Of a stretch of 36,440 bases of DNA, positions 1 to 36,440 are shown piece by piece. Position 1 is the stretch's first letter. Each line of letters starts with the position of its first letter. The notes beneath the pieces were generated by a model. The model saw only the letters and a list, made by a program, of their open reading frames with translations, made no database searches and was not told the DNA's origin. A program made the position numbers and the translations under genes. The stretch is from a virus. Where the stretch lies: IMG/VR virus record IMGVR_UViG_3300026522_000014, positions 1 to 36,440 of that record; one strand, given 5' to 3'.

Positions 1-127
1 CTTGACAATTTACAGGCACTTATGCAAGCAAAAGGGATATCCCGTCGAAAATTGGCGCAAGACTGCGGTATAAGCCCAAGCGCAGTGAATTCGTGGTTCA
101 ACCGCAGCGCCGAAAACATCAGCTTGC
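1..127. repeat. 127-bp exact terminal direct repeat, copy 1. It is the overlap of a circularly closed contig.
   Basis: Bases 1-127 (cttgacaatttacaggcac...aacatcagcttgc) are letter-for-letter identical to 36314-36440. Merging the copies restores a single repressor ORF. Confidence 0.95.
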
Positions 128-5364: not shown

Positions 5365-5399
5365 ATGTACCTCCTTGCATCAATGATATGTGTGAAAAA

Positions 5400-5440
5400 C
5401 GACACGCCGAAGTTGCGTACCGTAAGGATAGGTGTATAGT
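5400..5440. promoter_or_regulatory. divergent regulatory region: a TCGGCGTGTCG box (- strand) plus ATAGGTGTATAGT (+ strand) with a TTGCGT -35-like hexamer
   Basis: The plus strand reads cgacacgccgaag TTGCGT accgtaaggataggtg TATAGT, giving a 16-nt spacer. The 13-mer at 5428-5440 is identical to five - strand copies elsewhere. Confidence 0.5.
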
Positions 5441-6193: not shown

Positions 6194-7126
6194 TCAGTCG
6201 ATTCTCAGCACTTGTCCCACACGAATCAGATTAGGATTCCTGATACCGTTAATCCGCTGGAGCTTCTGCCAAGTCGTGCCGTATCGAGCGGCAATGCCTG
6301 AGAGTGTATCCCCGGCGCGTACAGTGTAAGTACGCCCAGCGCTCTTATGCGTCAGCTTCTGGTTCACGATAGCTTGCACAGCGTCATAGCGATTGCCAAG
6401 CGCCTTGCGCCGAGCGTCACCATCACCGAATCTACCGGCAATCACTTCGTCGGCAAGCTGATTATCACTCTTGCCAGCAAGCGGGTCAACCGGAGCCGGA
6501 GCGGGTACCGGAGTGCCTGAAGCGCCAGCGTACTTCTGCCATGCCGCCGCATCGCCATAGAACTTGTCAAGGTCAAGATTACCGCCCCAGCCGTTGAGCC
6601 GTCCAACGCTGGAATATTGCCGGATAGCGCAAGTGTAGGCTCCCTCATTCCACGGCTTATCCTGATAGCCGGTCGCGCTCATATTAGCGTACTGGGCACA
6701 CCAGATAGCGCAATTGTACTTTTGAGCAATTGGAGCCACCTGAGCATACACACTCGCCTGAGCATAAATCATCGGGCGAACACCAGTCCGCTCGATAACG
6801 CGAGCCACCAGCGCGTCAAGATACCCATAGTTGCCCCACGCCTTATTAGAGCCGCTCTCCCAGTCGATGCACAGGATACCCTTGCCGACATAATTCTTGA
6901 CGTTGTTCACGTAGTAGTCGGCTTCAGCTTGGGCACCGGAGCCGTCCACATAATGATACGTGCCCCAACACTTGCCCAGCCTGATAGCCTGCTGCACAGC
7001 CCGGTCACAATCTGGATTGACATAATTCACGCCTTGCGTTGCCTTCGCGATGACGAAATCGCAAGGTACCTTGCCAAGGTCAATACCTGCTTGGTATGAC
7101 GCGATATCAATTCCCTGCATTACCAT
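6194..7126 (-). CDS. endolysin: GH25 muramidase domain plus a C-terminal LysM domain
   Basis: The N-terminus reads [37 protein letters not shown]...GTYHY (GH25-like). The C-terminus reads [43 protein letters not shown] (LysM). The RBS is aggaggtaattatt. Confidence 0.9.
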
Positions 7127-18214: not shown

Positions 18215-19903
18215 TTAGATTACTTGGACAACAACGCCGCCATCACCCAGCACATAATCCTGCTGGAGAAGGTACATCGCGTTTATCATTGACACGACCA
18301 TATCGACTTTCCCCTTGCTCTTCTTCTTGTGAACATACATATTCATGTTCGTATCGAATGAGCACCGGGCATTCTGAAAGTTAATCTCCAAGAGCTTATT
18401 AGGTTCATACGCAAACTCTTTCTTGAGAATCTTTTCTTTCAGCCACTTCGTCGGCGGGTGCAAGACACTCGAATGTTGGCGAATCTCAACCGTGTTATAT
18501 CCCGCTTCCTCCAGCTTCTGCGCGGTCGACATGGCATTCCACCTATCGTACCCGATGGCTTGAATCGTCACGCCATACTTGTCTTCGACACTCAGGATGA
18601 AGTCCTCGACCGCCTTATAATCAATGATTTTGTCGCCGCAGGCAATACACTTGCCATCGGCAATGTACTGCCTGTAATCGATTTTTTCATAGGCGTTCTT
18701 CTCGTCGATTCGGTCAGCCGGGATAAAGGCGATGGAATCGGCAAGCACTGTACCATCATCATCCACCGACACCATACTCACAGACGTGTTGTCGTTGGAC
18801 AATGAAAGGTCAAGCCCAAGATAAACCGTGCGACCTTCCCAGTCGATATGCGATACCTTGCACGCCTGCACATCAGACACGTCCACATAGGTTTCCGTGC
18901 CCTGCCCTTGGTAGATGATGTTGCAGTGCTTCGTCAGGAAATTCTCTCGCGCCGATTCGACTGCGATAGCATATGCGCGCTTCTTCTTCAGGTCTTCCCA
19001 GATTTCCGGGATTTCCAGAGATACCGGATTAGCTTGGCGCAACACCAAGTCATCTGTCATCCAGTCCTTTGTATCATCAGGCTCATAAAGCAGTGAGAAT
19101 CGCGTCTCGTCCTCTATCAAGCCATCAAGTACCTTCTTGCAATAGCCGACCTCATCTTCAAATGGATTGTCAATCGTCGGATATTTGGTGGAGATGATAA
19201 AGCCGAGTTTGTTGAGGATATTCAACTGCCCGGAACGCATGGCTTCGATAGCGTAGCTGGTAGGCAATGCTCCCACTTCGTCAGCGCAAAACGCATTAGG
19301 GAGCCTACCGTCCATGCGGCTAGTCGAATAACTCAGCGGGATATAAGTCGTGTTGAATGGCTTGAAGGTAATCGAATCACGAAGAATCTTCCATCGCGCC
19401 GAATCCTTGAACATGAAAACTTCAGGCGAACTCTTCAACGTCTCACTGATTGCTTCACGTACCTCACGGCTCAAAGTGCCATCAGGTGCCACCGAGTAAA
19501 ATTTACTAAACCGCGGCTCAGTCAGGAACAACAGAATGAAAATCGTGGCGATAGTATAAGTTTTGAAATTCTTACGCGCAATCTCCAACACGCACGTCTC
19601 ATACTTCCGCTTCTCCGGATTATCCCTACGAACCGTGCAAAGCGTCGCAATGTAAAAGAGCCACTGATAACCTGTAGTGCAATCGTACAATGATTGCCCG
19701 GCACGCAAACCCTTCGGCATACGCAACACTTTAAGAATCGCGTACAATTGCTTCAATTTACGATGGCTCACGAAATACGTCTCGTCCTTGCCGTCGCAAA
19801 TATCAACCCACGCTTGCATCTGCTTCTTCACATACTTCGGCGTTGTATGTTCGTCAATACACTTAATGCAGAACTCGTACCCCTTATTCCTCATCGTCAT
19901 CAT
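18215..19903 (-). CDS. terL: terminase large subunit
   Basis: A 562-aa protein with ATPase and nuclease regions typical of Terminase_1-type TerL. The start is ambiguous among the ATGs at 19903, 19900 and 19894. Confidence 0.9.
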   Translation of the reverse strand: MMTMRNKGYEFCIKCIDEHTTPKYVKKQMQAWVDICDGKDETYFVSHRKLKQLYAILKVLRMPKGLRAGQSLYDCTTGYQWLFYIATLCTVRRDNPEKRKYETCVLEIARKNFKTYTIATIFILLFLTEPRFSKFYSVAPDGTLSREVREAISETLKSSPEVFMFKDSARWKILRDSITFKPFNTTYIPLSYSTSRMDGRLPNAFCADEVGALPTSYAIEAMRSGQLNILNKLGFIISTKYPTIDNPFEDEVGYCKKVLDGLIEDETRFSLLYEPDDTKDWMTDDLVLRQANPVSLEIPEIWEDLKKKRAYAIAVESARENFLTKHCNIIYQGQGTETYVDVSDVQACKVSHIDWEGRTVYLGLDLSLSNDNTSVSMVSVDDDGTVLADSIAFIPADRIDEKNAYEKIDYRQYIADGKCIACGDKIIDYKAVEDFILSVEDKYGVTIQAIGYDRWNAMSTAQKLEEAGYNTVEIRQHSSVLHPPTKWLKEKILKKEFAYEPNKLLEINFQNARCSFDTNMNMYVHKKKSKGKVDMVVSMINAMYLLQQDYVLGDGGVVVQVI

Positions 19904-20270
19904 CCTCGGTTTCGCCGTTAATCAACGCAAGCAACGGGTCAACGTCCCCGCCATCACGCTCAGCGTCAGACTTGCCGAAACCTTGGATAATACGCATAAG
20001 CGTCGTTACAGTCCGATTGGCGGAATCCGTGGTCTTATTGTATTCAGTCACAGCAGGATTACTGTAGAGATTCTTACGCCCCTTGACATACTCCTTCTTC
20101 ACCAGCATGCCATTCTCATTCATACTCTGCTCAAGCTCTGCGAGAATCTTAATCTGCACCTGATAGCGTTTGAACGTGGTCACGAAGAAGAAGTTTGTCT
20201 GCACACCAGTTTCTTCAGCAATACGCAGAATCTCAATAGCCTGCTCTTGCAAGTTCAACTTAGTAGTCAT
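19884..20270 (-). CDS. terS: terminase small subunit (P27 family)
   Basis: I trimmed the start to the ATG at 20270 (MTTKLNLQEQAIEILRIAEETGV...YVKGRKNLYSNPAVTEYNK), which has RBS tgaggattgataat. Confidence 0.8.
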   Translation of the reverse strand: MTTKLNLQEQAIEILRIAEETGVQTNFFFVTTFKRYQVQIKILAELEQSMNENGMLVKKEYVKGRKNLYSNPAVTEYNKTTDSANRTVTTLMRIIQGFGKSDAERDGGDVDPLLALINGETEDDDDEE

Positions 20271-20274
20271 ATTA

Positions 20275-21471
20275 TCAATCCTCAACCTTCACAGCTTCCA
20301 TGCCAGTAAGCTTCTCCCACCTGTCGACAATCACGTCGGCATACTTCGGGTCATACTCCATAACTCTCGCCCTGCGCCCATTCTGCTCGCACGCGATAAT
20401 AGTCGTGCCGCTGCCGCCGAACAAGTCTAAGACAATATCGTTCTTCGCGCTGCTATTGCGAATCTGATAGTCGAACAATCCGACTGGCTTCATCGTCGGA
20501 TGCAGGTCGGCCTTTGTCGGCCTGTCCCAGTCAATGACAGTCGTCTGCTTCCTGTCACCATACCAGTTATGGGTTCCAGTCTCCTTCCAACCGTAAAGGC
20601 ACGGCTCATGCTTCCACTGGTAATCCTGCCGTCCCATGACGAGCGAGTTCTTATTCCAAATCAGCTCCTGCTTGACTGTAAGCCCAGCGTCCTCGATGGC
20701 GGTTGCGAAATTCACGACCTCCCAGCTCGCATACCAGACATAGAATGCCGCCCCGTCAGCCATCGCGTCGTAGGCATTGGCAAACGCTGCAAGGAGGAAA
20801 TCATGGAAGGCACTGGTGTCCATGCTGTCGTTCTCGATTTTCATCGCCTTGGCGCTCTTGCCAGTGTAATCGACGTTGTAAGGCGGGTCGGTGATAAGGA
20901 GCGCGGCTCTCTCGCCGCCTCCTGCCTGCATGAGCTTGCGAACATCATCTGGTTTCGTGCTGTCACCACACATCAAGATATGGTTGCCGAGCCTGTACAC
21001 ATCGCCAAGCTTCGTCACTGGTTCAACTGGCGGTTCTGGAACATCCTCGTCTTCGCCACTCCCAGCCAAGTCACTATCGGAATCAAGGTCTCCGAAATCA
21101 ACATCATCAAACCCGAACTCACCCATGTCGATTTCATCAATACCATCAAGCTCAATCTCCAGCTTGGCTAAGTCCCACTGTGCGAGTTCGCCAGTCTTGT
21201 TGTCCGCAAGCCGGAACGCCTTCACCTGTTCAGGTGTCAAATCGTCAGCAACAATTACGGGGACAGTATCGAGGCCGAGTTTCTTAGCCGCCTTCAATCT
21301 CGTGTGACCTGTGACTATCACGCCATCAGAATCCACGACAATAGGCACCTTGAAACCAAATTCCTTGATGCTTGCGGCTACAGCGTCCACCGCACCATCA
21401 TTAAGCCGCGGATTATTAGCATACGGGTTCAAATCCGCTACATTCCTGTATTCCACTTTCAGTTTGTGCAT
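20275..21471 (-). CDS. ParB-like N-terminal domain fused to an N6A/N4C DNA methyltransferase
   Basis: The N-terminus reads YANNPRLNDGAVDAVAASIKEFGFKVPIVVDSDGVIVTGHTRLKAAKKLG (ParB/Srx-like). The methyltransferase motifs LLITDPPYNVDY and VLDLFGGSGTTIIACEQ are present. I trimmed the start to the ATG at 21471. Confidence 0.85.
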   Translation of the reverse strand: MHKLKVEYRNVADLNPYANNPRLNDGAVDAVAASIKEFGFKVPIVVDSDGVIVTGHTRLKAAKKLGLDTVPVIVADDLTPEQVKAFRLADNKTGELAQWDLAKLEIELDGIDEIDMGEFGFDDVDFGDLDSDSDLAGSGEDEDVPEPPVEPVTKLGDVYRLGNHILMCGDSTKPDDVRKLMQAGGGERAALLITDPPYNVDYTGKSAKAMKIENDSMDTSAFHDFLLAAFANAYDAMADGAAFYVWYASWEVVNFATAIEDAGLTVKQELIWNKNSLVMGRQDYQWKHEPCLYGWKETGTHNWYGDRKQTTVIDWDRPTKADLHPTMKPVGLFDYQIRNSSAKNDIVLDLFGGSGTTIIACEQNGRRARVMEYDPKYADVIVDRWEKLTGMEAVKVED

Positions 21472-21682: not shown

Positions 21683-22051
21683 TCAATTTTCGGCGTGTCG
21701 TTTTTGCGCGAGTTGCTTCAAATAGATTGCGTCTATCTCTCCTGCGTCTGCTTGCTTGTGGTGTGGTACGCATAGGCAGATTAAGTTATCGTCATCGGTT
21801 AGTAGGTCTGGTGCTTGGTTGAGTTTGACAATGTGGTGTACTTCTAGTCCTTTGTTGGTTATGTGTCCTTGGTCTTTGCATACTTCGCATAGGTAGTGTG
21901 CGTCTTGTTTGATTTGTTCGCGTTTGTGTTGCCATCGGTATGTGTTGCGTAGTTTGTCTGTGTCGGTTTTTTTGTAGTGTTTGGGTGGTTTTTTGGGGCA
22001 TGTTTCGTCTATTTTGTGTATGTGTCCGCAGTAGCCGCATGCTTTGAGCAT
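21683..22051 (-). CDS. HNH endonuclease (terminase-associated type)
   Basis: Cys pairs are present (CGYCGH...C, CEVC). The HNH core reads LEVHHIVKLNQAPDLLTDDDNLICLCVPHH. It is located upstream of the terminase genes. Confidence 0.85.
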   Translation of the reverse strand: MLKACGYCGHIHKIDETCPKKPPKHYKKTDTDKLRNTYRWQHKREQIKQDAHYLCEVCKDQGHITNKGLEVHHIVKLNQAPDLLTDDDNLICLCVPHHKQADAGEIDAIYLKQLAQKRHAEN

Positions 22052-22118: not shown

Positions 22119-22346
22119 TTATTTGGTTGTGTTTTCGGGTTTTGCTGTGGCGTGGCTTACTCCGATGAGTGCGCCGATGAGTACGCCGATGGCATTGATG
22201 GTTGCCACGATTGCGTCGGTGTCTGCCCAGTGCCATACGCTGCCCAATACGCCGATAAACGTGGCGAGTGCTGGGAATGCGATTAAGCCTAGCCATTTGA
22301 GGATATCGTATGCTTTGCTTGACAGGATATAGGTTTTATCGTCCAT
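22119..22346 (-). CDS. holin, Dp-1 family-like
   Basis: A 75-aa protein reading YDILKWLGLIAFPALATFIGVLGSVWHW...IVATINAIGVLIGALIGVS, which matches the Dp-1 holin pattern with two hydrophobic helices. Confidence 0.7.
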   Translation of the reverse strand: MDDKTYILSSKAYDILKWLGLIAFPALATFIGVLGSVWHWADTDAIVATINAIGVLIGALIGVSHATAKPENTTK

Positions 22347-22360
22347 GTGTTTTCCCCCGG

Positions 22361-22432
22361 TTAGTATTTGCTGATTGCCGCGATGATAATTAGTGTCACG
22401 CAGATGATGATTGTAATGGTGATGCTTGTCAT
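22361..22432 (-). CDS. 23-aa hydrophobic micro-ORF, not in the ORF track
   Basis: It translates to MTSITITIIICVTLIIIAAISKY and has the genome-typical RBS gaaaggaaacgcc directly upstream. Confidence 0.5.
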   Translation of the reverse strand: MTSITITIIICVTLIIIAAISKY

Positions 22433-22453: not shown

Positions 22454-22834
22454 CTAGTCTACTTCGGTCAGGTGTGTGATTGCTTTGCTTGTTGCCGCGT
22501 CGAGATTGGCTTGAGCTTTGTGTACTTTGTTCATGGCGGCTTCCACGTTTCCGTTAAGGTGTCCGTGGTTCAAGGCTATGAGGCTTATCTCGTTGGCGGC
22601 TAGGCTTGCGTCAAGTCCTCGGAGTAAAGCGTCGTAGAGGTATTGCCGTTCAACGTGTTGCTGGTCTCGTTTAGCGTCGATTATAGCCTGTTGTGCGCGG
22701 TATTGTGCGTCTTGCGTGTCGCGTTGTTTCGTGCGATTGTTGCCGATATAGGTGATGATTGCTACAAATATGCTAGACACTGCCGCGCACCCGCTGGTCA
22801 CGATTGCCACGATAACTTCCGTCGATAAACCCAT
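22454..22834 (-). CDS. membrane-anchored coiled-coil protein, first gene of the late transcription unit
   Basis: The N-terminal TM segment is VIVAIVTSGCAAVSSIFVAIITYIG, followed by a helical Q/A/D-rich region. I recognise no family. Confidence 0.65.
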   Translation of the reverse strand: MGLSTEVIVAIVTSGCAAVSSIFVAIITYIGNNRTKQRDTQDAQYRAQQAIIDAKRDQQHVERQYLYDALLRGLDASLAANEISLIALNHGHLNGNVEAAMNKVHKAQANLDAATSKAITHLTEVD

Positions 22835-22967
22835 TTTTCAGCCTCTAACCACTCGCAATTTCTCTATGGTGATTATATCGTGATTGACGCGGGATTTTCG
22901 GGACAATTCGTGTGGTACAATTAGCTTGTACTCATTTTGTGGGTATTCCTTTCGATTGGTTTGAGTG

Positions 22968-22995
22968 AAGGGCACGGCTTTTTGGTCGTGCCCTT
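22968..22995 (-). terminator. 9-bp-stem hairpin 3 nt after the stop at 22999, a possible terminator or RNA-stabilising hairpin
   Basis: The arms are aagggcacg (22968-22976) and cgtgccctt (22987-22995). There is no clear U-tract on the - strand transcript. Confidence 0.4.
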
Positions 22996-22998
22996 CCT

Positions 22999-23181
22999 TT
23001 ATTCTTGATGACCACGTTTGATATCGTAGCGGATTAGCGCTTTGATGTATCCTTGCTTGTTTTCCACGCTATCCAAGCGCTTGATGATGTCCGCGTCATT
23101 CTCGCGGTGAAGCCAAAGATGATACTGCTTGCCGTTTTTCTTGTGGTATCGTGCCGCGTTTTTCGTGTGATTCTTACCCAT
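22999..23181 (-). CDS. small basic protein, possibly of the ribbon-helix-helix type
   Basis: A 60-aa protein. KQYHLWLHRENDADIIKRLDSVENKQGYIKALIRYDI fits a strand-helix-helix pattern. The RBS is gggaga. Confidence 0.5.
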   Translation of the reverse strand: MGKNHTKNAARYHKKNGKQYHLWLHRENDADIIKRLDSVENKQGYIKALIRYDIKRGHQE

Positions 23182-23183
23182 GA

Positions 23184-23252
23184 TTATCTCCCTAGATATG
23201 CGATGATGATTGCTGCAGCGATTATGATGATTGCGAATATGGTGTCAAGCAT
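23184..23252 (-). CDS. 22-aa hydrophobic micro-ORF, not in the ORF track
   Basis: It translates to MLDTIFAIIIIAAAIIIAYLGR. Its start overlaps the stop of 23245-23394, and its end contains the RBS of the next gene. Confidence 0.4.
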   Translation of the reverse strand: MLDTIFAIIIIAAAIIIAYLGR

Positions 23253-25070: not shown

Positions 25071-25104
25071 ACTATACACCTATCATGGGAGCGACACGCC
25101 GAAG
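25071..25104 (-). promoter_or_regulatory. bipartite promoter-like cassette, copy D
   Basis: The - strand reads TTCGGCGTGTCG-ctcccatg-ATAGGTGTATAGT. It lies 43 nt upstream of the ATG at 25028 and is preceded by the hairpin gaagaatcg...cgattcttc (25101-25133). Confidence 0.55.
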
Positions 25105-25109
25105 AATCG

Positions 25110-25289
25110 TCAATCACGATAACGCGATTCTTCTACGAACACGGCACACGCATATCCAATATCCACGCCCAGAACGTGCGCGACCTTCACAGGTGAAAGA
25201 TGCAAGTCGAAAAGATAATGCACGGCAATCATGTAAGTCTTCGATTTCCTATCTAGCGGGTATTTCATCGCCTTGTGCTTACTCTCCAT
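25110..25289 (-). CDS. small hypothetical protein, possibly HTH, with an uncertain start
   Basis: Candidate starts are the ATGs at 25289 and 25268. The track start at 25304 is a TTG. The sequence ...YMIAVHYLFDLHLSPVKVAHVLGVDIGYACAVF... is HTH-like. Confidence 0.4.
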   Translation of the reverse strand: MESKHKAMKYPLDRKSKTYMIAVHYLFDLHLSPVKVAHVLGVDIGYACAVFVEESRYRD

Positions 25290-25644
25290 CTTTAAGCATT
25301 TCAATCATGCGGTCAAGAGCTTCGATGACCATGTGCCAGTCCCTAGTGTAAAAGCCGTGCCACGCGACACACTCAAAACCGGTAGTAGATTCGTACAATG
25401 CGCGGAGTATGCGGTCGCATGAGCCTGCAGCGTGGAGCACGACTTCACCTAGCATTGATGCACGCCGGGCATACCATCGCGCCTTCCGCAAGTCCTCCAG
25501 CGGCTTATCTTTTGAGCGAAAACGCCAAAGATACTTTATCGCATTCCCAACGCAGAAGTTTTGAAATTGCGTCAGTTCGATACACTCGAAATTAACGCCA
25601 TCATGCCCGGCATAATGCGCCGGGTGGTCAACATTATCGCTCAC
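25279..25644 (-). CDS. DUF3310-family protein
   Basis: The sequence VDHPAHYAGHDGVNFECIELTQFQNFCVGNAIKYLWRFRSKDKPLEDLRKARWY matches the DUF3310 pattern. Confidence 0.75.
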   Translation of the reverse strand: MSDNVDHPAHYAGHDGVNFECIELTQFQNFCVGNAIKYLWRFRSKDKPLEDLRKARWYARRASMLGEVVLHAAGSCDRILRALYESTTGFECVAWHGFYTRDWHMVIEALDRMIEMLKDGE

Positions 25645-25657
25645 GATAATTCCCTCC

Positions 25658-25840
25658 TTAAAACACGGATAATATCAATGCAAATATGATGATAGTAAGC
25701 GCAACACTGACAATGGTCATGTAAACCGCTTTCCTGTACTCGGCTTTATTGATAAACGCGAGAATACCGACAATGGATATCATGAGCGGAACAAACATAA
25801 CCAAAATCGCGTATGCACAGATTATTTGCAGTACAGTCAT
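25658..25840 (-). CDS. 60-aa 2-TM membrane protein
   Basis: The two hydrophobic helices are ICAYAILVMFVPLMISIVGILAF and MTIVSVALTIIIFALILSVF. Confidence 0.65.
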   Translation of the reverse strand: MTVLQIICAYAILVMFVPLMISIVGILAFINKAEYRKAVYMTIVSVALTIIIFALILSVF

Positions 25841-26215
25841 TTATTCCTCCGTAAAATAGATTTCAGTCTCATACTCGGCTTCACCAGCCAGTCGTGCGGG
25901 GATATTGCCGATATACATTTCCTTCGCTTTGGTGAGCCAGCATCGCTCACGCTTCCTGCCGATTGTCGCCCATACCATGCCGCCCTTGCTTAGGATTAGC
26001 CATGCTTCCCACGGCTCAAGACCGACCATCATGGGTTTCCGTTTCCGCAGTTCTGCTATTTCGCTTGCCATTGCGCTTACGATTAGGTTTGCTGTGCGTT
26101 TGGTGTCTTCGGCGTGGGCGATTTCGCGTTTTCGTGCTTCGTCGCGCCGCTTCCATTCGCTCCGGTTTTCAGTTGGCATTCGCGCTGAGGTAACGCCGGT
26201 AAAATTCGCTTTCAC
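25841..26215 (-). CDS. hypothetical protein
   Basis: I trimmed the start to the GTG at 26215, which has RBS gaaggagaaaact. The longer track ORF overlaps 26268-26516. Confidence 0.55.
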   Translation of the reverse strand: MKANFTGVTSARMPTENRSEWKRRDEARKREIAHAEDTKRTANLIVSAMASEIAELRKRKPMMVGLEPWEAWLILSKGGMVWATIGRKRERCWLTKAKEMYIGNIPARLAGEAEYETEIYFTEE

Positions 26216-26267
26216 AGTTTTCTCCTTCAATGGTGGCGGTCGGCAGTGTTGGTGCCGCCCATTGTAT

Positions 26268-26516
26268 TCACCAATTCCTCGCGTATGCCTCCATGTCCTC
26301 CGCGCTGAATCTGATGGCGATAATGCGCGGGTCGAAATACTCGCCGCCGAGGTCGAGGGAGAGTGTGTAAGACTTGTAGATGGCTTTGCCGTCTTCGTCC
26401 ACCGCTTGGTCTCGGTCAATCGGTTCATCGAAGCCTTCTCCGTGCCCGACGAGCATGGCTTCCGTGGTGTTCCACAGTGCGTCGATGTTTTGCATGAGGT
26501 TGGTGTCGGTGTTCAT
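26268..26516 (-). CDS. small strongly acidic hypothetical protein
   Basis: An 82-aa protein with about 17 D/E against 6 K/R by hand count. The RBS is cgaaaggaaacacc. Confidence 0.7.
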   Translation of the reverse strand: MNTDTNLMQNIDALWNTTEAMLVGHGEGFDEPIDRDQAVDEDGKAIYKSYTLSLDLGGEYFDPRIIAIRFSAEDMEAYARNW

Positions 26517-26533
26517 GGTGTTTCCTTTCGGTT

Positions 26534-26560
26534 GGCGGGTTGTGCGGTTGCCGCCGCCGC
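26534..26560. repeat. 27-nt GC-rich intercistronic element, copy 1
   Basis: ggcgggttgtgcggttgccgccgccgc is identical to 29412-29438. It lies between a stop codon and the next RBS. Confidence 0.85.
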
Positions 26561-26569
26561 AGTATGTCG

Positions 26570-26839
26570 CTAAGCGTTGACGATGGCGTTGATTTCGTCT
26601 ACGAAGTCCGCGGCTTCGAGCATGCAGGACGCCATTTCGCGAATCTCGCCCGGGTTGTCGGTGTTGAGTGAAGCATCGATGCTGAAGCGCTTCTTACCGC
26701 CCGTCAGCGAATAAGTGTTCACTCGGACGCCGATGCGCTGGTAGGAGGTTTGCGTAACGAAGTAGCTGCTCTTGTCATCGATGTTTTCTACCATGAGCTT
26801 GAAGTTGCCGTTCTTGCTGGTCTTGATTTCGGTGGTCAT
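26570..26839 (-). CDS. hypothetical protein (MTTEI N-terminus)
   Basis: I trimmed the start to the ATG at 26839, which has RBS cgaaaggaaacatc. Its first 17 coding nt are identical to those of 24828-25028. Confidence 0.7.
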   Translation of the reverse strand: MTTEIKTSKNGNFKLMVENIDDKSSYFVTQTSYQRIGVRVNTYSLTGGKKRFSIDASLNTDNPGEIREMASCMLEAADFVDEINAIVNA

Positions 26840-26890
26840 GATGTTTCCTTTCGGTCGGTGGCTTGGGCTGTTCCCTTGCCGGTAACTATT

Positions 26891-26923
26891 ACTATACACC
26901 TATTAAAAAACGACACGCCGATA
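26891..26923 (-). promoter_or_regulatory. bipartite promoter-like cassette, copy C
   Basis: The - strand reads ATCGGCGTGTCG-tttttta-ATAGGTGTATAGT, 52 nt upstream of the ATG at 26839. Confidence 0.55.
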
Positions 26924-26955
26924 AAAGAAAAGTGCCGCAACCGAAGCCACGGCAC
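26923..26955 (-). terminator. rho-independent terminator specific to the - strand
   Basis: The - strand RNA gugccguggc-uucg-guugcggcac has a 10-bp stem with 3 G-U pairs and a UUCG loop, followed by uuuucuuuu. It lies 5 nt after the stop at 26960. Confidence 0.7.
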
Positions 26956-26959
26956 TCTC

Positions 26960-27316
26960 TCAGAATATCGCTCGCGCCAACTCATGCCCCGCTTGCGTCA
27001 ACCGATACACACGGCACCGCCTCCCGTAAGCCGTCCTGCCATAAACCGGCGTACCATCGTCATACGTCACAAGCCCCACAAGCCCCTCGCGCATAAGCTC
27101 GGCACGACGGCTCCGAAGCGACTGCGCCGTACCATGCGGCATATGCTCGTCATCGAAAGTCGGATGCTCAAGCTCCGCAAGAATCTCGTCATCAGTTGCT
27201 TCACCCTCCATATAAAGCGTGAAGAGTACGGCTCGCCGGTCTCGCGACACATTGACGGTTTCCGCAGCCTCTTGGCTCGTCTCCGGGTCATTCCTCCGTG
27301 CCTTCGCTTCACTCAT
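26960..27316 (-). CDS. winged-helix DNA-binding protein
   Basis: I trimmed the start to the ATG at 27316 (MSEAKARRNDPETSQEAAETVNVSRDRRAVLFTLYMEGEATDDEI...RSRRAELMREGLV...VYRLT), which fits a wHTH pattern. Confidence 0.6.
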   Translation of the reverse strand: MSEAKARRNDPETSQEAAETVNVSRDRRAVLFTLYMEGEATDDEILAELEHPTFDDEHMPHGTAQSLRSRRAELMREGLVGLVTYDDGTPVYGRTAYGRRCRVYRLTQAGHELARAIF

Positions 27317-27869
27317 TCTCAGCCGCCTTACTTTCCATCGCCTTCCGTCGCCTGCGTTCACGTTGCTTGCGGTTATGTTCCTCGCGCTGCTCCGGAGTCC
27401 ACGCCGCCATAACCTTGCGCTTGTACTCACGCGTCCGCTTGCGCTTGGCTTCAAGCTTTGCCTTCTTAGCCTTGCGCTTTTGATACCGTTCCCTCTGCTT
27501 CCGCCGATACTCCTCACGCTGCTCGTCGGTCATCGCGTGATAGCGTTCACGTTGCTTGGCAAGCGTCCTTTCCTTCCACTCCGGGTTGCTGTGGTATCGT
27601 GCTCGTGCAGCTTCATTTTTTCGTTCCCGCACTTCCGGCCGCTGGTAATACTCGTGTTGCCATGCCGCGAATTGCTCAGCGTGCTCTTCCCGCCAGCGCC
27701 GGTTGCGTTCGCTCCTCTCCTTGACATGTTGCCGTTGGTATTGGGACTCACGGATTTTGCGCTTGACTTCCGCGCTAGGCTCAGCATTCCGCATCTCCTC
27801 GATGAGCGCCATCGTCTCTGCATCGTCAAGGTCAATGCTCATGGATTCCACGTCATTGCTCTCACACAT
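27309..27869 (-). CDS. highly charged Arg/Glu/Lys repeat protein
   Basis: I trimmed the start to the ATG at 27869 (TGATG overlap). Repeated units are NRRWREEH, YYQRPEVRER, RYHSNPEWKER, and EQREEYRRKQRERY / EQREEHNRKQRER. Confidence 0.65.
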   Translation of the reverse strand: MCESNDVESMSIDLDDAETMALIEEMRNAEPSAEVKRKIRESQYQRQHVKERSERNRRWREEHAEQFAAWQHEYYQRPEVRERKNEAARARYHSNPEWKERTLAKQRERYHAMTDEQREEYRRKQRERYQKRKAKKAKLEAKRKRTREYKRKVMAAWTPEQREEHNRKQRERRRRKAMESKAAENE

Positions 27870-28051
27870 CAGGCTTTCTTCCTCTCCGCGCAACTGGGGC
27901 AAATTGTCTTAAGCAGTTTCCCGTCGTAAGCGACTTTCCACCCCGCCTGTTTGAGTGCGGCTAGTGCAAACTCGATGGATGCAGTATCGACTCGCTTCAT
28001 TCGGAGGCAGTCGTCGCATGATACTCGGTAGATGGCTTTAGCTTCAATCAT
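27869..28051 (-). CDS. Cys-rich small protein, distant member of the tandem family
   Basis: Translation is MIEAKAIYRVSCDDC...ALAALKQAGWKVAYDGKLLKTICPSC. It shares an ATGA overlap with the upstream gene. Confidence 0.65.
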   Translation of the reverse strand: MIEAKAIYRVSCDDCLRMKRVDTASIEFALAALKQAGWKVAYDGKLLKTICPSCAERKKA

Positions 28052-28263
28052 TTTACTTGCCCTCCCTGCTTGTGTTCTGGGCAATACATATGCTCGATTC
28101 CGTTTTCTTCGCGCCGCTCCCAACCGGCTTCCAGTGCCGCGTCGATTGCTAGTGTCGCCCTCGCCCAGCCTAAGCAGAGACTGCAATCCCAGCTTGCCAG
28201 CCGGTCGCAACCGTATCTGTCGCATTCCACGTCATACCAGCGGCTGATATTCGTCTCAATCAT
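28048..28263 (-). CDS. Cys-rich small protein, tandem paralogue 2
   Basis: Translation is MIETNISRWYDVECDRYGCDRLASWDCSLCLGWARATLAIDAALEAGWERREENGIEHMYCPEH. It has ATGA overlaps on both sides. Confidence 0.7.
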   Translation of the reverse strand: MIETNISRWYDVECDRYGCDRLASWDCSLCLGWARATLAIDAALEAGWERREENGIEHMYCPEHKQGGQVK

Positions 28264-28469
28264 TTCGTGTCCTTCCTGCACCAGTGGCAATACATGTGTT
28301 CGAGGCCGTCCTCTTCGCGTGGCTCCCAACCGGCTTCCAGTGCCGCATTGACCGCTTGTGTCGGCGTTGCCCAGCCTAGGCAATGCCCATAGTCCGTGCT
28401 TGCCAGCCGCTCGCATTCTCTGCCGTCGCACTCCACGTCATACCAGCGGCTAGTATTTACCTTAATCAT
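28260..28469 (-). CDS. Cys-rich small protein, tandem paralogue 3
   Basis: Translation is MIKVNTSRWYDVECDGRECERLASTDYGHCLGWATPTQAVNAALEAGWEPREEDGLEHMYCHWC. It is about 60 percent identical by eye to 28048-28263. Confidence 0.7.
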   Translation of the reverse strand: MIKVNTSRWYDVECDGRECERLASTDYGHCLGWATPTQAVNAALEAGWEPREEDGLEHMYCHWCRKDTK

Positions 28470-28707
28470 TGGTGTTTCCTTCCTCGTTTGCGGTGACTTC
28501 GACAATATAGACGCGATAATGCCCCACCGGGATATCCTCGTCCATGTCGATATATAGGCGTGGGGTTTTGCGTATCTCGTCTTTCTCGTCATCGTAGAAT
28601 GACGCTCCAACAATCTCGCCTGAATAAATGCGGCACACCTTCTTGCCGATGGATTGTATATATTCGCTGAGATTGCCCAGCCATTGCCACGCACTAGTCT
28701 TAATCAT
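28462..28707 (-). CDS. hypothetical protein
   Basis: An 81-aa ORF. Both its start and its end carry the repeated junction aaggaaacaccaATGATTAAg. Confidence 0.65.
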   Translation of the reverse strand: MIKTSAWQWLGNLSEYIQSIGKKVCRIYSGEIVGASFYDDEKDEIRKTPRLYIDMDEDIPVGHYRVYIVEVTANEEGNTND

Positions 28708-28873
28708 TGGTGTTTCCTTTCGCTACAACGATTGATTCGAGTACTTTTGTGAGTGTTTCGATGGTGTCGGCGCAAGCGTCCAGCAGGTCGTCCACTTCAT
28801 CGGTATCGTAGCCTTCGCGGAATCGGTGGACGGTGAGTTTTGCGGCTCTCACTTCTTTTGGTGTGAGCATCAT
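28700..28873 (-). CDS. 57-aa DivIVA-domain-like protein, not in the ORF track
   Basis: The ATG at 28873 has RBS agaggaaccacc. Translation is MMLTPKEVRAAKLTVHRFREGYDTDEVDDLLDACADTIETLTKVLESIVVAKGNTND. LTPxEV...F...GYDxxEVDxxLD is the DivIVA N-terminal signature. Confidence 0.6.
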   Translation of the reverse strand: MMLTPKEVRAAKLTVHRFREGYDTDEVDDLLDACADTIETLTKVLESIVVAKGNTND

Positions 28874-28886
28874 GGTGGTTCCTCTC

Positions 28887-29123
28887 TTAGAATTCCTGTT
28901 GGATTGGTGTCAGCTCGTATGCCCTATGCGTGGTGTCATCTTCGATGATTTCGCCAAGCTGTAGGTCATATGCGGCAAGTCGTGCGTTAGCGTCCTTTTC
29001 CCATTCCGCTTCATTGTTGCCGTCGATACGTGGGACGATATCCCATGCGCCATTCGGATAATAGAGGTCAAGCGAGCCGAGTGGCTTGTCGGTTACGCCT
29101 ATAACGGGATTGTTCGCAGTCAT
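28887..29123 (-). CDS. hypothetical protein
   Basis: A 78-aa ORF with RBS ccggaaaggaacacgca. Confidence 0.65.
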   Translation of the reverse strand: MTANNPVIGVTDKPLGSLDLYYPNGAWDIVPRIDGNNEAEWEKDANARLAAYDLQLGEIIEDDTTHRAYELTPIQQEF

Positions 29124-29151
29124 TGCGTGTTCCTTTCCGGTTGATACATGG

Positions 29152-29388
29152 CTAGTTTTCCCACATGGCGTGTTGTTTTTCGGTTAGAGGGATATGCATT
29201 ATTTCGCGGTATCCTATCTCTTGGTTCACTTCATCGTAAAGCTTCCAATGCTTATACGGCAATGAGTATTGATTATGTAACAAGTGTTTGCGAAAATACC
29301 CGAACGTCACACGGTTAGTGTGTGTTTCGTCCCAATATTCCATTTTGCTTAGTTTCCTAAGTTTTGCCGATAGAGTCTTGTTATCCAT
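29152..29388 (-). CDS. hypothetical protein
   Basis: I trimmed the start to the ATG at 29388 (MDNKTLSAKLRKLSKMEYWDETHTNRV...). The upstream part of the track ORF runs through the 27-nt repeat. Confidence 0.6.
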   Translation of the reverse strand: MDNKTLSAKLRKLSKMEYWDETHTNRVTFGYFRKHLLHNQYSLPYKHWKLYDEVNQEIGYREIMHIPLTEKQHAMWEN

Positions 29389-29411
29389 GCCCACGCCTTT
29401 CGAGTTGAATC

Positions 29412-29438
29412 GGCGGGTTGTGCGGTTGCCGCCGCCGC
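29412..29438. repeat. 27-nt GC-rich intercistronic element, copy 2
   Basis: Identical to 26534-26560. Confidence 0.85.
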
Positions 29439-29444
29439 TAAGAT

Positions 29445-29774
29445 TCAGAGGGATTCCAGCTCGTAGTAGCCGCTGTAATAGCCGTGGTCGTTTGGCTCGT
29501 CGTGGAATGCGCCGAGCTTCACGCCGAGGTATTCGAGTTGCTTGTTGGCTTCCGCTTCCCAAGTCTTCTCGTCCTCGCCGTAGATGTCATCGAAGCAGTC
29601 AATCCACTCGCCGCCTTCGATTTCCATTGCTTCAGCTTCAGTCATGAAGCCTTCTTCATAGCCGATGTCGAGGTAGCCGCACTTTTCTCCGTTCTTGTTT
29701 TGGAAGGTGATGCGGCTTGCGTCGCCGTATTCGTTGAACTTGACTTCGATGTCCTTGATGTCGATGGTCTTCAT
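29445..29774 (-). CDS. strongly acidic hypothetical protein
   Basis: A 109-aa protein with about 28 D/E against 9 K/R by hand count. The RBS is cgaaaggacaaacc. Confidence 0.7.
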   Translation of the reverse strand: MKTIDIKDIEVKFNEYGDASRITFQNKNGEKCGYLDIGYEEGFMTEAEAMEIEGGEWIDCFDDIYGEDEKTWEAEANKQLEYLGVKLGAFHDEPNDHGYYSGYYELESL

Positions 29775-29828
29775 TTTGGTTTGTCCTTTCGGTTGGTGCT
29801 TGGGCGTTTCCCTTGCTGCTGTCTTTTA

Positions 29829-29863
29829 ACTATACACCTATCTAGAAACGACACGCCGATAGG
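29829..29863 (-). promoter_or_regulatory. bipartite promoter-like cassette, copy B
   Basis: The - strand reads CCTATCGGCGTGTCG-tttctag-ATAGGTGTATAGT. All 35 nt are identical to copy A. Confidence 0.55.
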
Positions 29864-29871
29864 CGGGCGGC

Positions 29872-30153
29872 TCACAACTGGTCGAGTTCGTTAAAAAACT
29901 GGTCGATGGCATAATCCGCGGAATCCTCGTAACTATAAGGCTCATGCTCCGCGTTCTTATCCCGCTCCTCCTGCTCTACCAATCTGTCTATCCGGTCTTG
30001 TTCACTGCGGTGCTGCCAAGAGAGAGGCGCGTTGCCTCGCGCCCGATTCTCACACACTGTGTATTCGTGCCCGCGATACTCGTAGTCGAGATAGACCATG
30101 TGCGCGTCGTATCCGCTCCCGTAGTATTTCCTAACGAATGTTGCCTTCTTCAT
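29872..30153 (-). CDS. hypothetical protein
   Basis: A 93-aa ORF with RBS cgaaagggg. I recognise no family. Confidence 0.7.
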   Translation of the reverse strand: MKKATFVRKYYGSGYDAHMVYLDYEYRGHEYTVCENRARGNAPLSWQHRSEQDRIDRLVEQEERDKNAEHEPYSYEDSADYAIDQFFNELDQL

Positions 30154-30193
30154 GGCATGCCCCTTTCGGTTGGTTCCTTACTTGATATCTATT

Positions 30194-30228
30194 ACTATAC
30201 ACCTATCTAGAAACGACACGCCGATAGG
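30194..30228 (-). promoter_or_regulatory. bipartite promoter-like cassette, copy A
   Basis: The - strand reads CCTATCGGCGTGTCG-tttctag-ATAGGTGTATAGT, 41 nt upstream of the ATG at 30153. Confidence 0.55.
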
Positions 30229-30230
30229 CG

Positions 30231-30262
30231 GAAGAAAAGCGGCATAGCCGAAGCCATGCCGC
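30231..30262 (-). terminator. rho-independent terminator with a UUCG tetraloop
   Basis: The - strand RNA gcggcauggc-uucg-gcuaugccgc is followed by uuuucuuc. It starts 8 nt after the stop at 30271. Confidence 0.75.
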
Positions 30263-30270
30263 CTATACAC

Positions 30271-30600
30271 TCAGCGAGCGAACCTGTCAATCAGCACTCG
30301 CGCGATATCGAGCACATGCTCTGCGCACTCATCCGGCGTATCACACCCAGCGACGCGAAGCTGGTCAACAAGGTCTCCCTCGCCGAAATCGTCAGGCATG
30401 CGACGATAGCAAGCCTTGCACACATTGGCGAAAGTGTCCTTGCTGTCGCCTGTCAGCTTGCAAGCTGCGCCACAGCATGGCGTGAGCACATAGAGCATGC
30501 AGAATCCAAGGCTATCGGTGCTCAGTCCGACATCATGCCCACACTTGGTGCAGATGCGGTAGAAGCCGTCGCGGGTAATGGAAGAATCGGCAACGAACAT
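30271..30600 (-). CDS. Cys-rich (zinc-binding-like) hypothetical protein
   Basis: A 109-aa protein with the motifs CTKCGH, CCGAAC and CKAC. The RBS is ctaggaggtcact. Confidence 0.7.
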   Translation of the reverse strand: MFVADSSITRDGFYRICTKCGHDVGLSTDSLGFCMLYVLTPCCGAACKLTGDSKDTFANVCKACYRRMPDDFGEGDLVDQLRVAGCDTPDECAEHVLDIARVLIDRFAR

Positions 30601-30674
30601 AGTGACCTCCTAGCCACTCAGTGGCTCCCCCCTGTGGGGAACCGATGGACTGTGTTCGTTTGCTGATACCTATA

Positions 30675-30707
30675 ACTATACACCTATCTGAAAACGACAC
30701 GCCGAAG
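30675..30707 (-). promoter_or_regulatory. bipartite promoter-like cassette, copy E
   Basis: The - strand reads CTTCGGCGTGTCG-ttttcag-ATAGGTGTATAGT. It lies 75 nt upstream of the ATG at 30600, and the leader contains two small hairpins abutting the SD. Confidence 0.55.
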
Positions 30708-30743
30708 AAAAGAAAAGGCGGCACGCCTATAGGTCGTGTCGCC
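30704..30743 (-). terminator. rho-independent terminator directly upstream of cassette E
   Basis: The - strand hairpin ggcgacacg-accuauagg-cgugccgcc has one mismatch and is followed by uuuucuuuucuu. Confidence 0.6.
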
Positions 30744-30748
30744 AACAT

Positions 30749-30785
30749 GCCATCTCACATAGCTCAATGAGCCATCTCACATAGC
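30749..30785. repeat. 15-bp perfect direct repeat x2 (gccatctcacatagc) with 7-bp spacing
   Basis: 30749-30763 and 30771-30785 are identical. They lie in an apparently non-coding 170-nt segment. Confidence 0.85.
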
Positions 30786-30912
30786 ATCCGCCAAGAAACC
30801 GGTTCTCTCTCGACTTACACCACATCGCCAGTGCCCCAAGCACGGTTGGTGCCCTACCGCCAGCGTGACTGGTTCGCATATCGTAGAGGCGTTCACGCTG
30901 TGTCAACACTCA

Positions 30913-31215
30913 TTATACACGCTCCAGCCACCTGCGGAGAATCTTAGCCGGTGACGTGCGCTCATAATGGAGCCGCCGCGCTATCGTCTCCCAGCTCTTG
31001 CCCTCCAAGAAGCGCATGATGCAGATTAGCCGCACTTTATCGTCAGGGATTGAGATAATCCACGCCATCAAGTCGAACCGCTGCCGCTCCACACTCTCCA
31101 GATGCTCAATCAGTAATCGGCGGCATGATGGCTCAAGCTCCGCACTAATCAGCGAGCGCATACTCTCACTCTCTGCTTTCAAGTGTCGAGCCTGAGCCAA
31201 GTCACGCTCCGTCAT
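30913..31215 (-). CDS. sigma-70 region-4-like HTH protein, a putative phage transcription regulator
   Basis: The C-terminus IPDDKVRLICIMRFLEGKSWETIARRLHYERTSPAKILRRWLERV follows the sigma region-4 pattern. It shares an ATGA overlap with the DnaC-like gene. Confidence 0.6.
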   Translation of the reverse strand: MTERDLAQARHLKAESESMRSLISAELEPSCRRLLIEHLESVERQRFDLMAWIISIPDDKVRLICIMRFLEGKSWETIARRLHYERTSPAKILRRWLERV

Positions 31216-32972: not shown

Positions 32973-33004
32973 ATATTATCACGTCTCAAGGATAGACACG
33001 CCGA
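32973..33004 (-). promoter_or_regulatory. box-only variant of the cassette, copy H: TCGGCGTGTC-N16-TAATAT
   Basis: The - strand reads attcggcgtgtc tatccttgagacgtga TAATAT. It overlaps the 3' end of 32979-33311, upstream of the replisome-organiser gene. Confidence 0.4.
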
Positions 33005-36135: not shown

Positions 36136-36164
36136 AGTGTACACCCATATTTTTCAATTTGCAA
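36136..36164 (-). promoter_or_regulatory. candidate early lytic promoter (TTGCAA-17 nt-TACACT)
   Basis: The - strand reads TTGCAA attgaaaaatatgggtg TACACT. The -10 is overlapped by the GTGTACAC palindrome. Confidence 0.5.
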
Positions 36165-36304: not shown

Positions 36305-36440
36305 ATGGCATTTCTTGACAATTTACAGGCACTTATGCAAGCAAAAGGGATATCCCGTCGAAAATTGGCGCAAGACTGCGGTATAAGCCCAAGCGCAGTG
36401 AATTCGTGGTTCAACCGCAGCGCCGAAAACATCAGCTTGC
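36305..36440 (+). CDS. XRE/cI-type HTH repressor, 5' part. The gene continues across the circular junction into 128-297.
   Basis: The ATG at 36305 is in frame with the ORF at 22-297 and is preceded by gaaaggtggtgaaaa (RBS). The N-terminus reads MAFLDNLQALMQAKGISRRKLAQDCGISPSAVNSWFNRS, a typical XRE HTH. Confidence 0.85.
   Translation, partial: MAFLDNLQALMQAKGISRRKLAQDCGISPSAVNSWFNRSAENISL
36314..36440. repeat. 127-bp exact terminal direct repeat, copy 2
   Basis: Identical to 1-127. Confidence 0.95.

Follow-up and report, generated by a model that had tools for sequence, protein, structure and literature searches.

The subject of this work is a short repeated element, a box followed by a 13-mer, in the 36,440-nt DNA of the IMG/VR virus record IMGVR_UViG_3300026522_000014, the whole of which is called the window below. 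Bases 1-127 of the window are repeated exactly at 36314-36440, and this 127-nt terminal repeat indicates that the window represents a circularly assembled, complete phage genome of 36,313 bp. Its G+C content is 50.4%, and the open reading frame (ORF) of a cI-like gene crosses the circular junction. The gene layout was obtained from Pfam and PHROG scans together with the gene calls on an identical public contig. The scans revealed a serine integrase and cI as temperate markers, and all large ORFs could be assigned (integrase, terminase, portal, protease, capsid, probable tape measure, tail, lysin). The phage is a temperate tailed siphophage with Gram-positive-type genes. In this genome, five near-identical putative promoter cassettes, designated P1-P5 (Table 1), appear to drive a block of small accessory genes.

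The box, TCGGCGTGTC, is present in exactly eight copies, at 5401 (-), 21690 (+), 25093 (-), 26912 (-), 29850 (-), 30215 (-), 30696 (-) and 32995 (-), and the 13-mer, ATAGGTGTATAGT, in exactly six, at 5428 on the plus strand and at 25071, 26891, 29829, 30194 and 30675 on the minus strand. When one mismatch was allowed, the box gave 12 matches against a shuffle mean of 2.7, a number reached in 0 of 100 shuffles; for the 13-mer, the six exact matches stand against 0.4 expected, a number again reached in 0 of 100 shuffles. The counts of eight and six and the coordinates given in a preliminary description of this DNA were thus correct and lie far above those of the shuffled sequences. Its term "eight-copy bipartite promoter-like cassette" holds for the number of boxes, but the bipartite arrangement (box-N7/8-13-mer on the minus strand) is found in only five of the eight. 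The identity reported for the copies at 29829 and 30194 was borne out and even extends to 38 nt (29829-29866 and 30194-30231). Each bipartite copy lies between genes, points in their direction and stands 40-74 nt (from TATAGT to the start codon) ahead of a start codon preceded by a Shine-Dalgarno (SD) sequence, in agreement with the 40-75 nt proposed earlier. The conservation reaches about 20 nt into the predicted transcript, as TAnCAnCAAGG followed by the GAAAGGA SD sequence. Co-orientation, intergenic location, the conserved leader with its SD sequence, the terminators often found in front and preservation as units in about 45 loci all support the reading of these copies as promoter cassettes. 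With start codons chosen by their SD sequences, units of 1, 1, 10, 6 and at least 6 genes follow the five cassettes.

Folding revealed hairpin plus U-tract terminators directly upstream of three cassettes, those with boxes at 26912, 30215 and 30696, just as had been proposed; two of the three have UUCG loops, and G-U pairs form in the minus-strand transcript only. No terminator was found by folding in front of the cassettes at 25093 (P5) and 29850 (P3), so that the notion of insulated units holds for three of the five cassettes and fails for P3 and P5. P5 carries a TTGACG 5 nt upstream of the box (25103-25113, minus strand), which is too distant from the -10 hexamer for a -35 role. Leader sequences are also repeated: copies with ribosome-binding site and start codon (CCAACCGAAAGGAAACaccATG) precede genes without a promoter of their own, 53-nt leader repeats lie at 26500-26552, 26823-26875 and 29378-29430, and six 20-nt leader copies at 22432, 22940, 26516, 26839, 28708 and 29777. 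The small-gene block also contains a tandem duplication of about 185 nt with 78% identity (28080-28264 and 28286-28470), which spans two adjoining small genes, 28469-28260 and 28263-28048.

Table 1. Coordinates of the genes, promoters and terminators of the window (promoter roles are predicted).
Feature	Coordinates	Strand	Details
cI-like helix-turn-helix (HTH) gene	22-297	+	ORF begins before the circular junction; Pfam/PHROG
Serine integrase gene	303-1817	+	Pfam/PHROG
Divergent promoter region	5384..5440	both	Box 5401-5410 (-), facing the tail gene starting at 5364
Probable terS	19884-20285		
Inverted box-only copy	21690..21699	+	Within the last codons of the HNH gene (KRHAE-stop), encoding KRHA
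Probable late promoter	22872..22903	-	TCCCG (22899-22903), TCCCGC (22889-22894), 11 nt, TATAAT (22872-22877)
Small-gene block	30.6-22.0 kb	-	Roughly 28 genes in about 9 kb
P5	25071..25102	-	8-nt spacer; would drive 25028 onwards, including the YqaJ gene
P4	26891..26921	-	Would drive the 6-gene unit 26839-25110
P4 terminator	26928..26959	-	UUCG loop, G-U pairs
P3	29829..29859	-	Abuts the stop codon of the preceding gene; would drive the 10-gene unit 29774-26960
P2	30194..30224	-	Identical over 38 nt to P3; would drive the 93-aa gene 30153-29872
P2 terminator	30231..30262	-	UUCG loop
P1	30675..30705	-	Box TCGGCGTGTCG (30695-30705), 7-nt spacer, ATAGGTGTATAGT (30675-30687); would drive the 109-aa gene 30600-30271
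P1 -10 hexamer	30675-30680	-	TATAGT
P1 terminator	30706..30743	-	9-bp stem with one mismatch, U-tract; ends the early operon; stem kept in relatives
100-aa protein gene	30913..31215	-	Last gene of the early operon; candidate regulator
Organiser-gene promoter	32973..33004	-	Box 32995-33004, 16 nt, extended -10 TGaTAATAT (TAATAT 32973-32978)
Early lytic promoter	36136..36164	-	TTGCAA-N17-TACACT, ATGGGTG before the -10; no box
Early genes, in transcription order		-	Cro-like HTH, Gp157, ERF, SSB, HTH_39, dUTPase, DUF1064
Genes after DUF1064		-	Replisome organiser, DnaC-like loader, 100-aa HTH protein (30913-31215)
Genes downstream of the small genes		-	HNH, ParB-methylase, terS, terL, portal, protease, capsid, tail genes
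End of the minus-strand order		-	GH25-CW_7-LysM endolysin, then two tail-tip/receptor-binding genes

The three boxes outside P1-P5 differ in their surroundings. The one at 32995 lies in the last codons of the DUF1064 gene, where it encodes FGVS, and the geometry of the organiser-gene promoter to which it belongs is the same as that of the cassettes. Over 16 nt (TCGGCGTGTCGTTTTT), no difference separates the inverted copy at 21690 from those at 5401 and 26912. The box at 5401 faces the tail gene at 5364, for which the candidate -10 is TATCAT at 5384-5389; the plus-strand promoter predicted for the gene at 5480 consists of TTGCGT (5413-5418), N16 and TATAGT (5435-5440), the latter within the 13-mer at 5428-5440, and the inverted box is centred at about -41.5 from the predicted plus-strand start. 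The gene in question (5480-5881) encodes 133 aa, runs opposite to all neighbouring late genes with a canonical promoter of its own, and has a moron-like placement between the endolysin gene and the second tail-tip gene set.

For comparison we used about 45 metagenomic phage loci, namely 29 IMG/VR loci found via the 100-aa protein encoded just upstream of P1, together with contigs of more distant homologues, an exact copy of the window and loci from a pattern scan. They form three groups, for which GC content and identity of the 100-aa protein are, respectively, 50-52% and 70-92% (the window group), 57% and 62% (L034-L036, which are intermediate), and 54-59% and about 55% (group D, L007-L030). 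Nearly all 29 IMG/VR relatives contain a 13-mer variant, ATAGGTGTATA[G/C]T with no more than 2 mismatches, in 1-5 copies per locus, on the gene strand only and almost always ahead of an SD sequence and a start codon. The relatives yielded 66 unique group D cassettes and 28 unique box-carrying ones; in group D the 13-mer variant has a normal -35 (TTGCaa) ahead of it, at 16 nt. The early lytic promoters of all groups have the form TTGCAA-N17-(ATGGGTG)TATAGT, with TACACT as the -10 in the window, whose early promoter shares 10 of 13 positions with the 13-mer. Since the early promoter must be used by the host RNA polymerase unaided, the 13-mer is not specific to the cassettes; the comparison shows it (ATAGGTG-TATAGT) to be a family-wide extended -10 module of sigma-A-type promoters. 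The extended -10 of the organiser gene (window 32973-32981) overlaps the DUF1064 stop codon in every relative and reads TGcTATAAT in group D.

According to another idea, the repeats are promoters of a single-subunit phage RNA polymerase, or else a mobile miniature repeat with no relation to transcription. The sequence TAGGTGTATAG superficially resembles the SP6/K11-type promoters, and the element is multi-copy. However, the Pfam and PHROG scans revealed no RNA polymerase gene among the ORFs of the complete 36.3-kb genome, and no transposase or homing-endonuclease partner beyond the packaging-type HNH; the early promoter, a canonical -35/-10 one, has the -10 part in common with the element, and neither terminal inverted repeats nor target-site duplications were found. 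The gene content effectively refutes both versions of this idea, which we regard as extremely improbable.

The relatives also made it possible to separate the box from the rest of the promoter. In L034-L036 an identical TCGGCGTGTCG is followed by 2-4 nt, TTGACA/G, 16 nt and TATAGT. Among the unique box-carrying cassettes, 20 have a box-to--10 distance of 15-16 nt, no -35 and a box centre at about -32/-33, and 8 have a distance of 25-27 nt and a centre at about -42 to -44, with TTGACA/G in 7 of the 8 (the centres assume a transcription start 7 nt after the -10 hexamer). The two spacing classes thus differ by about one helical turn. At its organiser-gene promoter L034 keeps the short geometry, so that both arrangements occur in one genome, and at position 10705 it has an inverted box in a divergent pair analogous to that at 5401-5440 of the window. 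The earlier view of the box as a substitute for the -35 hexamer is hence not tenable: in L034-L036 the box lies upstream of a canonical TTGACA, and it also occurs inverted. Being independent of the -35, of spacing and of orientation, the box should be regarded as a separate asymmetric element and not as a variant -35 hexamer. This independent placement suggests that the box TCGGCGTGTCG(C) is an asymmetric operator for a trans-acting protein.

Furthermore, in L005 and L006 (around 8200-8260) the 3′ end of DUF1064 has been replaced, and the old 3′ end with a box-like sequence, spacer and -10 persists as non-coding DNA, thus indicating that this promoter is kept for regulation and not for coding alone. 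The window promoters expected to need the host polymerase alone (the early one and that at 5480) have a canonical -35, whereas the accessory cassettes lack it. In group D the place next to the -35 is taken by a GC-rich element, TTTCnGATTCTCGC, which abuts it and was not found outside cassettes; agreement with the box at 8 of 11 positions is reached only when the register is shifted by 1-3 nt, which is a lead and not a result. The TTGACG upstream of the box is kept in the P5-type cassettes of L002, L003, L006, L037, L038, L045 and L046, so that the order of the elements is reversed relative to L034-L036, where TTGACA stands downstream of the box.

The position of the cassettes relative to the breaks in homology was mapped by blastn of window 21.4-33.4 kb against L002-L006 and L034-L038. 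Homology segments start at the 5′ edges of cassettes (29861, 26932, 25106 and 30264), and in the stretch from 30.9 to 28.9 kb hardly anything but islands of cassette and leader sequence matches between the window and its relatives. Up to four cassettes of L038 are matched by a single window cassette, and L002 lacks window 26846-26542, the gap falling exactly between two 53-nt leader repeats. The results showed that cassettes and leaders serve as homologous-recombination joints for the swap, gain and loss of accessory genes.

Such islands at mosaic joints, together with the 38-nt identity of P2 and P3, are also what would be expected if no dedicated factor existed and the box were either a degenerate -35-like GTGTCG/A for the host sigma-A or a neutral hitch-hiker, its copies being alike through recent duplication and gene conversion. 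GTGTCA agrees with TTGACA at 4 of 6 positions, and the most degenerate copies (L004, L005) keep the GTGTC core only. Nevertheless, the 14-15-nt spacer is outside the normal range for sigma-70-type promoters, and the exact box is kept between the window and L034 (57% GC, 62% HTH identity) despite differing flanks and spacing. Its exact preservation across lineages, in three -10 contexts and both orientations, argues for selection on the box itself, and we consider a box without a factor quite improbable.

The candidate for the protein that reads the box is the 100-aa product of the last early gene, a sigma-70 region-4-like protein in the preliminary description and a candidate there as well. 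Its AlphaFold model (pLDDT 92.6) consists of an N-terminal helical hairpin and a C-terminal three-helix HTH, and the C-terminal helices superpose on region 4 of sigma-E (2h27_D) with an rmsd of 1.9 A over 43 residues at 32% identity. Pfam gave HTH_23 at E=0.004 and Sigma70_r4_2 at E=0.06 for the window protein, and among 33 homologues Sigma70_r4_2 was matched in 9 and DUF1492 in 1, all below the curated cut-offs; close homologues are labelled DUF722 in nr. A search of the PDB by sequence gave no meaningful match. About 300 homologues were found in public metagenomes, but there was no match to phage records by tblastn and no relative among the GTDB species-representative genomes. The linkage to the cassettes is close: 32 of 35 loci have their first cassette at most 500 nt beyond the stop codon of this gene (median 112 nt), none of the 35 has a cassette upstream of it, and the number of cassettes downstream ranges from 1 to 5 per locus. 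Moreover, every long-enough IMG/VR contig with the box...13-mer arrangement also encodes the 100-aa protein. The similarity to sigma region 4 is nevertheless faint and below threshold, and the HTH is nearly invariant in relatives whose cassettes have another upstream element. As the sole DNA-binding candidate that tracks the lineage, the 100-aa protein is put forward, tentatively and at less than even odds, as the box reader.

A stronger version of this proposal holds that the 100-aa protein is a sigma-like, region-4 factor reading the box as a replacement -35. The faint domain matches, the confident model with its sigma-E superposition, the location of the gene directly upstream of the first cassette in most loci, and the box occupying the -35 region in the window lineage would all be consistent with it. 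At the same time, the box of L034-L036 coexists with a downstream canonical TTGACA, the 5401 box is inverted relative to the adjoining plus-strand promoter, all Foldseek matches of the model have E above 1, and the HTH is nearly invariant despite different upstream elements, so that we find this version rather doubtful. The protein has no sigma region 2 and hence cannot be a sigma factor. It is a good deal less likely still that it acts as a free-standing sigma-region-4 module with a helical-hairpin adaptor, binding the box and replacing, or docking beside, region 4 of the host sigma-A. If true, a temperate phage with Gram-positive-type genes would have evolved a MotA-like sigma appropriation independently; this would imply a multi-promoter middle regulon, unlike the single late promoter of the known Ltr proteins (see below), and the same 100-aa protein would work from -32 (without a -35) and from -43 (with a -35) in sister lineages.

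Other proteins were considered as readers. cI was excluded, as the cI/early-promoter switch region has no box and cI identity does not follow the box: the window cI is 68-72% identical to the cI of box-carrying relatives and 75-86% identical to that of several box-less phages. The HTH_39 protein, the replisome organiser and the ParB-methylase neither co-occur nor co-vary with the box, and the 126-aa protein encoded upstream of the holin gene is a membrane protein. All box-carrying relatives, and 0 of 24 box-less loci, encode a 57-aa protein resembling the N-terminal part of DivIVA (28700-28873, minus strand), with an identity of 85-94% within the window group and of about 40% for L034-L036; it is the sole box-specific small protein, but an implausible DNA binder.

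The DNA between the 100-aa gene and P1 has features of its own. The sequence GCGTGTATAAT overlaps the stop codon of the gene and is followed by about 200 nt left unannotated by gene callers and then by the conserved terminator (30706-30917, minus strand). In three relatives this slot is occupied by a tRNA-Trp gene (L003 10637-10709, L004 10838-10909, L005 10457-10528). In the window it contains no tRNA, and ARAGORN found none elsewhere in the window; instead, it carries two copies of a 15-nt direct repeat, GCTATGTGAGATGGC. The non-coding stretch folds no better than shuffled sequences (z = -1.2).

A second conserved promoter, the probable late one at 22872-22903, has no -35 hexamer and lies downstream of a hairpin at 22967-22996. 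Its family form is (G/T)TCCCGCAA(T/A)TCCCGC-N11-TATAAT, with the direct repeat TCCCG-N5-TCCCGC, and the genes for the membrane protein, the holin, HNH and TerS follow it, so that it lies where an Ltr-type late promoter classically does. It is kept both with and without the box, in the window, L002, L004, L006-L029, L037, L041 and L045. A conserved direct-repeat promoter together with a conserved HTH protein is the classical Ltr arrangement, and this suggests that the 100-aa protein may act at the TCCCGC promoter instead of, or besides, the box.

The hairpin at 22967-22996 is a strong one of 13 bp with a U-tract on the plus strand only, and it would end antisense (plus-strand) transcription from the HNH/holin side; no plus-strand gene or promoter feeding it was identified, and on the plus strand a distance of about 1.3 kb separates it from the inverted box at 21690, upstream. 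Just upstream of the probable late promoter there is a gene (22999-23181, minus strand) for a 60-aa basic protein, kept in all lineages with up to 93% identity and without a Pfam match; its promoter, TTGACA-16-CATAAT (23221-23248, minus strand), is the best canonical one in the region, and the protein may be another regulator. The Dp-1-type holin gene (22119-22346) lies upstream of the HNH and terS genes, about 15 kb from the endolysin gene (6194-7126), and is preceded by two more small membrane-protein ORFs (22454-22834 and about 22360-22430).

Taken together, these data allow us to propose how the cassettes may work. Each cassette would be a host sigma-A-type promoter made up of an extended -10, a conserved initial transcribed region and leader, and the box as operator. 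The early operon would be transcribed first; a phage activator would then bind the box and recruit or stabilise RNA polymerase, in a class II- or MotA-like manner, at promoters without a usable -35, thereby turning on the accessory (middle) block and, via P5, genes towards the late region. Known activators bind at about -42, beside region 4, or, in the case of the MotA box, at about -30. Two spacing classes one helical turn apart are to be expected if an activator makes its contacts on one face of the helix. Since no minus-strand terminator separates P5 from the lysis and packaging genes, P5 must be silent in the lysogen without the help of cI. A factor bound to the box is more likely an activator than a repressor, and we give the activator an about even chance, above that of a box without any factor. 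The explanation as a whole, that is, a modular sigma-A-type promoter with operator and terminators, the activator mechanism and the recombination joints, seems to us reasonably probable.

Several points weigh against this account. The start sites of the cassettes, their timing and their dependence on a factor are what we infer from the sequence. The box at 5401 is not at the usual spacing, the nearest -10-like hexamer being 12 nt off and not 15-16; no convincing promoter was found on either strand near the 21690 box; and as the box-only copies at 32995 and 21690 lie in coding sequence, their conservation is partly explained by the protein. The cassettes of L034-L036 and group D have a good -35 and -10 and could fire without an activator, which there suits a repressor or a model without any factor. 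As for the 100-aa protein, lineages with and without the box still share about 75% identity in its HTH (residues 56-100), and the sole recognition-helix position that follows the box is I/M (box) versus Q (group D). L046 has W-to-F and I-to-M changes and retains the box, and the W/F and L/M differences do not track it. The similarity of the protein to sigma region 4 is below every significance threshold, and the TCCCGC promoter may be an equally good or better target for it. Finally, the box tolerates both orientations and several spacings, which is easier to reconcile with steric repression.

The last point belongs to an alternative in which the box is a repressor operator, serving either to silence these strong promoters in the lysogen, in a stoperator-like manner, or to shut them off later in the lytic cycle, the promoters themselves being constitutive extended -10 ones. 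The near-consensus -35/-10 pairs of L034-L036 and group D should not need an activator, and asymmetric, multi-copy, mostly co-oriented sites recall the stoperators of cluster A phages. Yet the cI/early-promoter switch is devoid of the box and cI identity runs independently of it, a site whose centre, at -43, falls outside the core promoter is poorly placed for repression, the spacing classes are about one helical turn apart, and the window-type cassettes lack any -35 hexamer. We therefore judge a repressor unlikely and retain activation through the box as the preferred explanation.

As regards the origin of the phage, a megablast search of 50,697 phage records with window 24-34 kb gave no match, and hence no close relative among isolated phages. 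The identity of TerL and the capsid protein to their counterparts in Lactobacillus delbrueckii group b phages is 61-72%, and the endolysin is nearest to actinobacterial phage lysins (40-47% identity), with homologues on phage-sized contigs only. Among the GTDB species-representative genomes, the DnaC-like protein has one relative, 41% identical, in a Succiniclasticum metagenome-assembled genome (MAG) without cassettes. No Rfam family was found in the window at gathering thresholds. The 889-aa ORF that is presumably the tape-measure gene contains 132-nt in-frame repeats at 10196-10564.

A search of full-text literature for the motif strings gave unrelated primer and eukaryotic matches only. Neither the motif nor the phage family has been described. 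Elements of this kind, namely phage-specific promoters that are repeated, carry an operator, are insulated by terminators and take part in the shuffling of modules, are already known, and no new principle or mechanism is involved. What the analysis provides is a regulatory map, with early, cassette (middle), organiser and probable late promoters, for a common family of uncultivated temperate phages. The same operator placed one helical turn apart in sister lineages represents a natural experiment for distinguishing an activator from a repressor. Once the host and the factor are known, the cassettes, as compact insulated expression units, could be reused as parts.

Among the known systems, the stoperators of cluster A mycobacteriophages are binding sites of the immunity repressor (gp71 in L5) and include the early-promoter operator as well as sites within transcribed regions. 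Like the box, they are asymmetric sites of about 11-13 bp, many per genome and mostly in one orientation relative to transcription. The window differs from them in that its switch region lacks the box, cI identity is not linked to the box, and the boxes lie upstream of -10 elements.

The middle promoters of phage T4 have a MotA box centred at -30 and a sigma-70 -10, and are used through sigma appropriation by MotA and AsiA. They share with the cassettes a host-type -10, the lack of a -35 hexamer, a phage-specific box near -30 to -33 and multiple copies before post-early genes, the match being one of geometry only. No MotA- or AsiA-like domain was detected in the proteins scanned with Pfam and PHROGs, a scan that did not take in every small ORF. 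In contrast to T4, the box also occurs one helical turn further upstream, beside an intact -35, in a sister lineage, and the host is of Gram-positive type.

The 100-aa protein itself invites comparison with the Ltr late regulators of Gram-positive temperate phages (RinA, ArpU, LtrA/Sigma70_r4, LtrB/DUF1492 and LtrC; Quiles-Puchalt et al. 2013, PMC3753634). Like these, it is encoded by a phage, small (about 100 aa), equipped with a region-4-like HTH at the C-terminus and made from a cI-controlled early operon, and it is proposed to switch on otherwise silent downstream promoters. However, the Ltr genes lie directly upstream of terS and act on one late promoter via direct repeats (PMC3753634), whereas the 100-aa gene is about 9 kb from terS and its candidate targets are 5-7 dispersed single-copy boxes; the separate promoter at 22872-22903, with its TCCCGC direct repeats, looks more like a classical Ltr target.

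As recombination joints, the cassettes find their counterpart in the promoter-early stem-loops (PeSLs) of T4-like myoviruses, terminator plus promoter repeats located at recombination breakpoints (Arbiol et al. 2010, PMC2839356; Comeau et al. 2014, PMC4122927). In both cases small promoter repeats, preceded by a terminator at some of the cassettes here, flank small genes, mostly of unknown function, in a plastic region, and coincide with the breakpoints of insertions, deletions and replacements between close relatives. Unlike the cassettes, PeSLs are host sigma-70 early promoters with a normal -35, found in virulent phages of Gram-negative hosts; the window is that of a temperate siphovirus with Gram-positive-type genes, its cassettes have no -35 and carry a GC-rich, operator-like box, and a stem-loop accompanies three of the five (26912, 30215 and 30696). 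In other words, regulatory repeats of the PeSL kind serve as recombination joints outside the T4-like phages as well.

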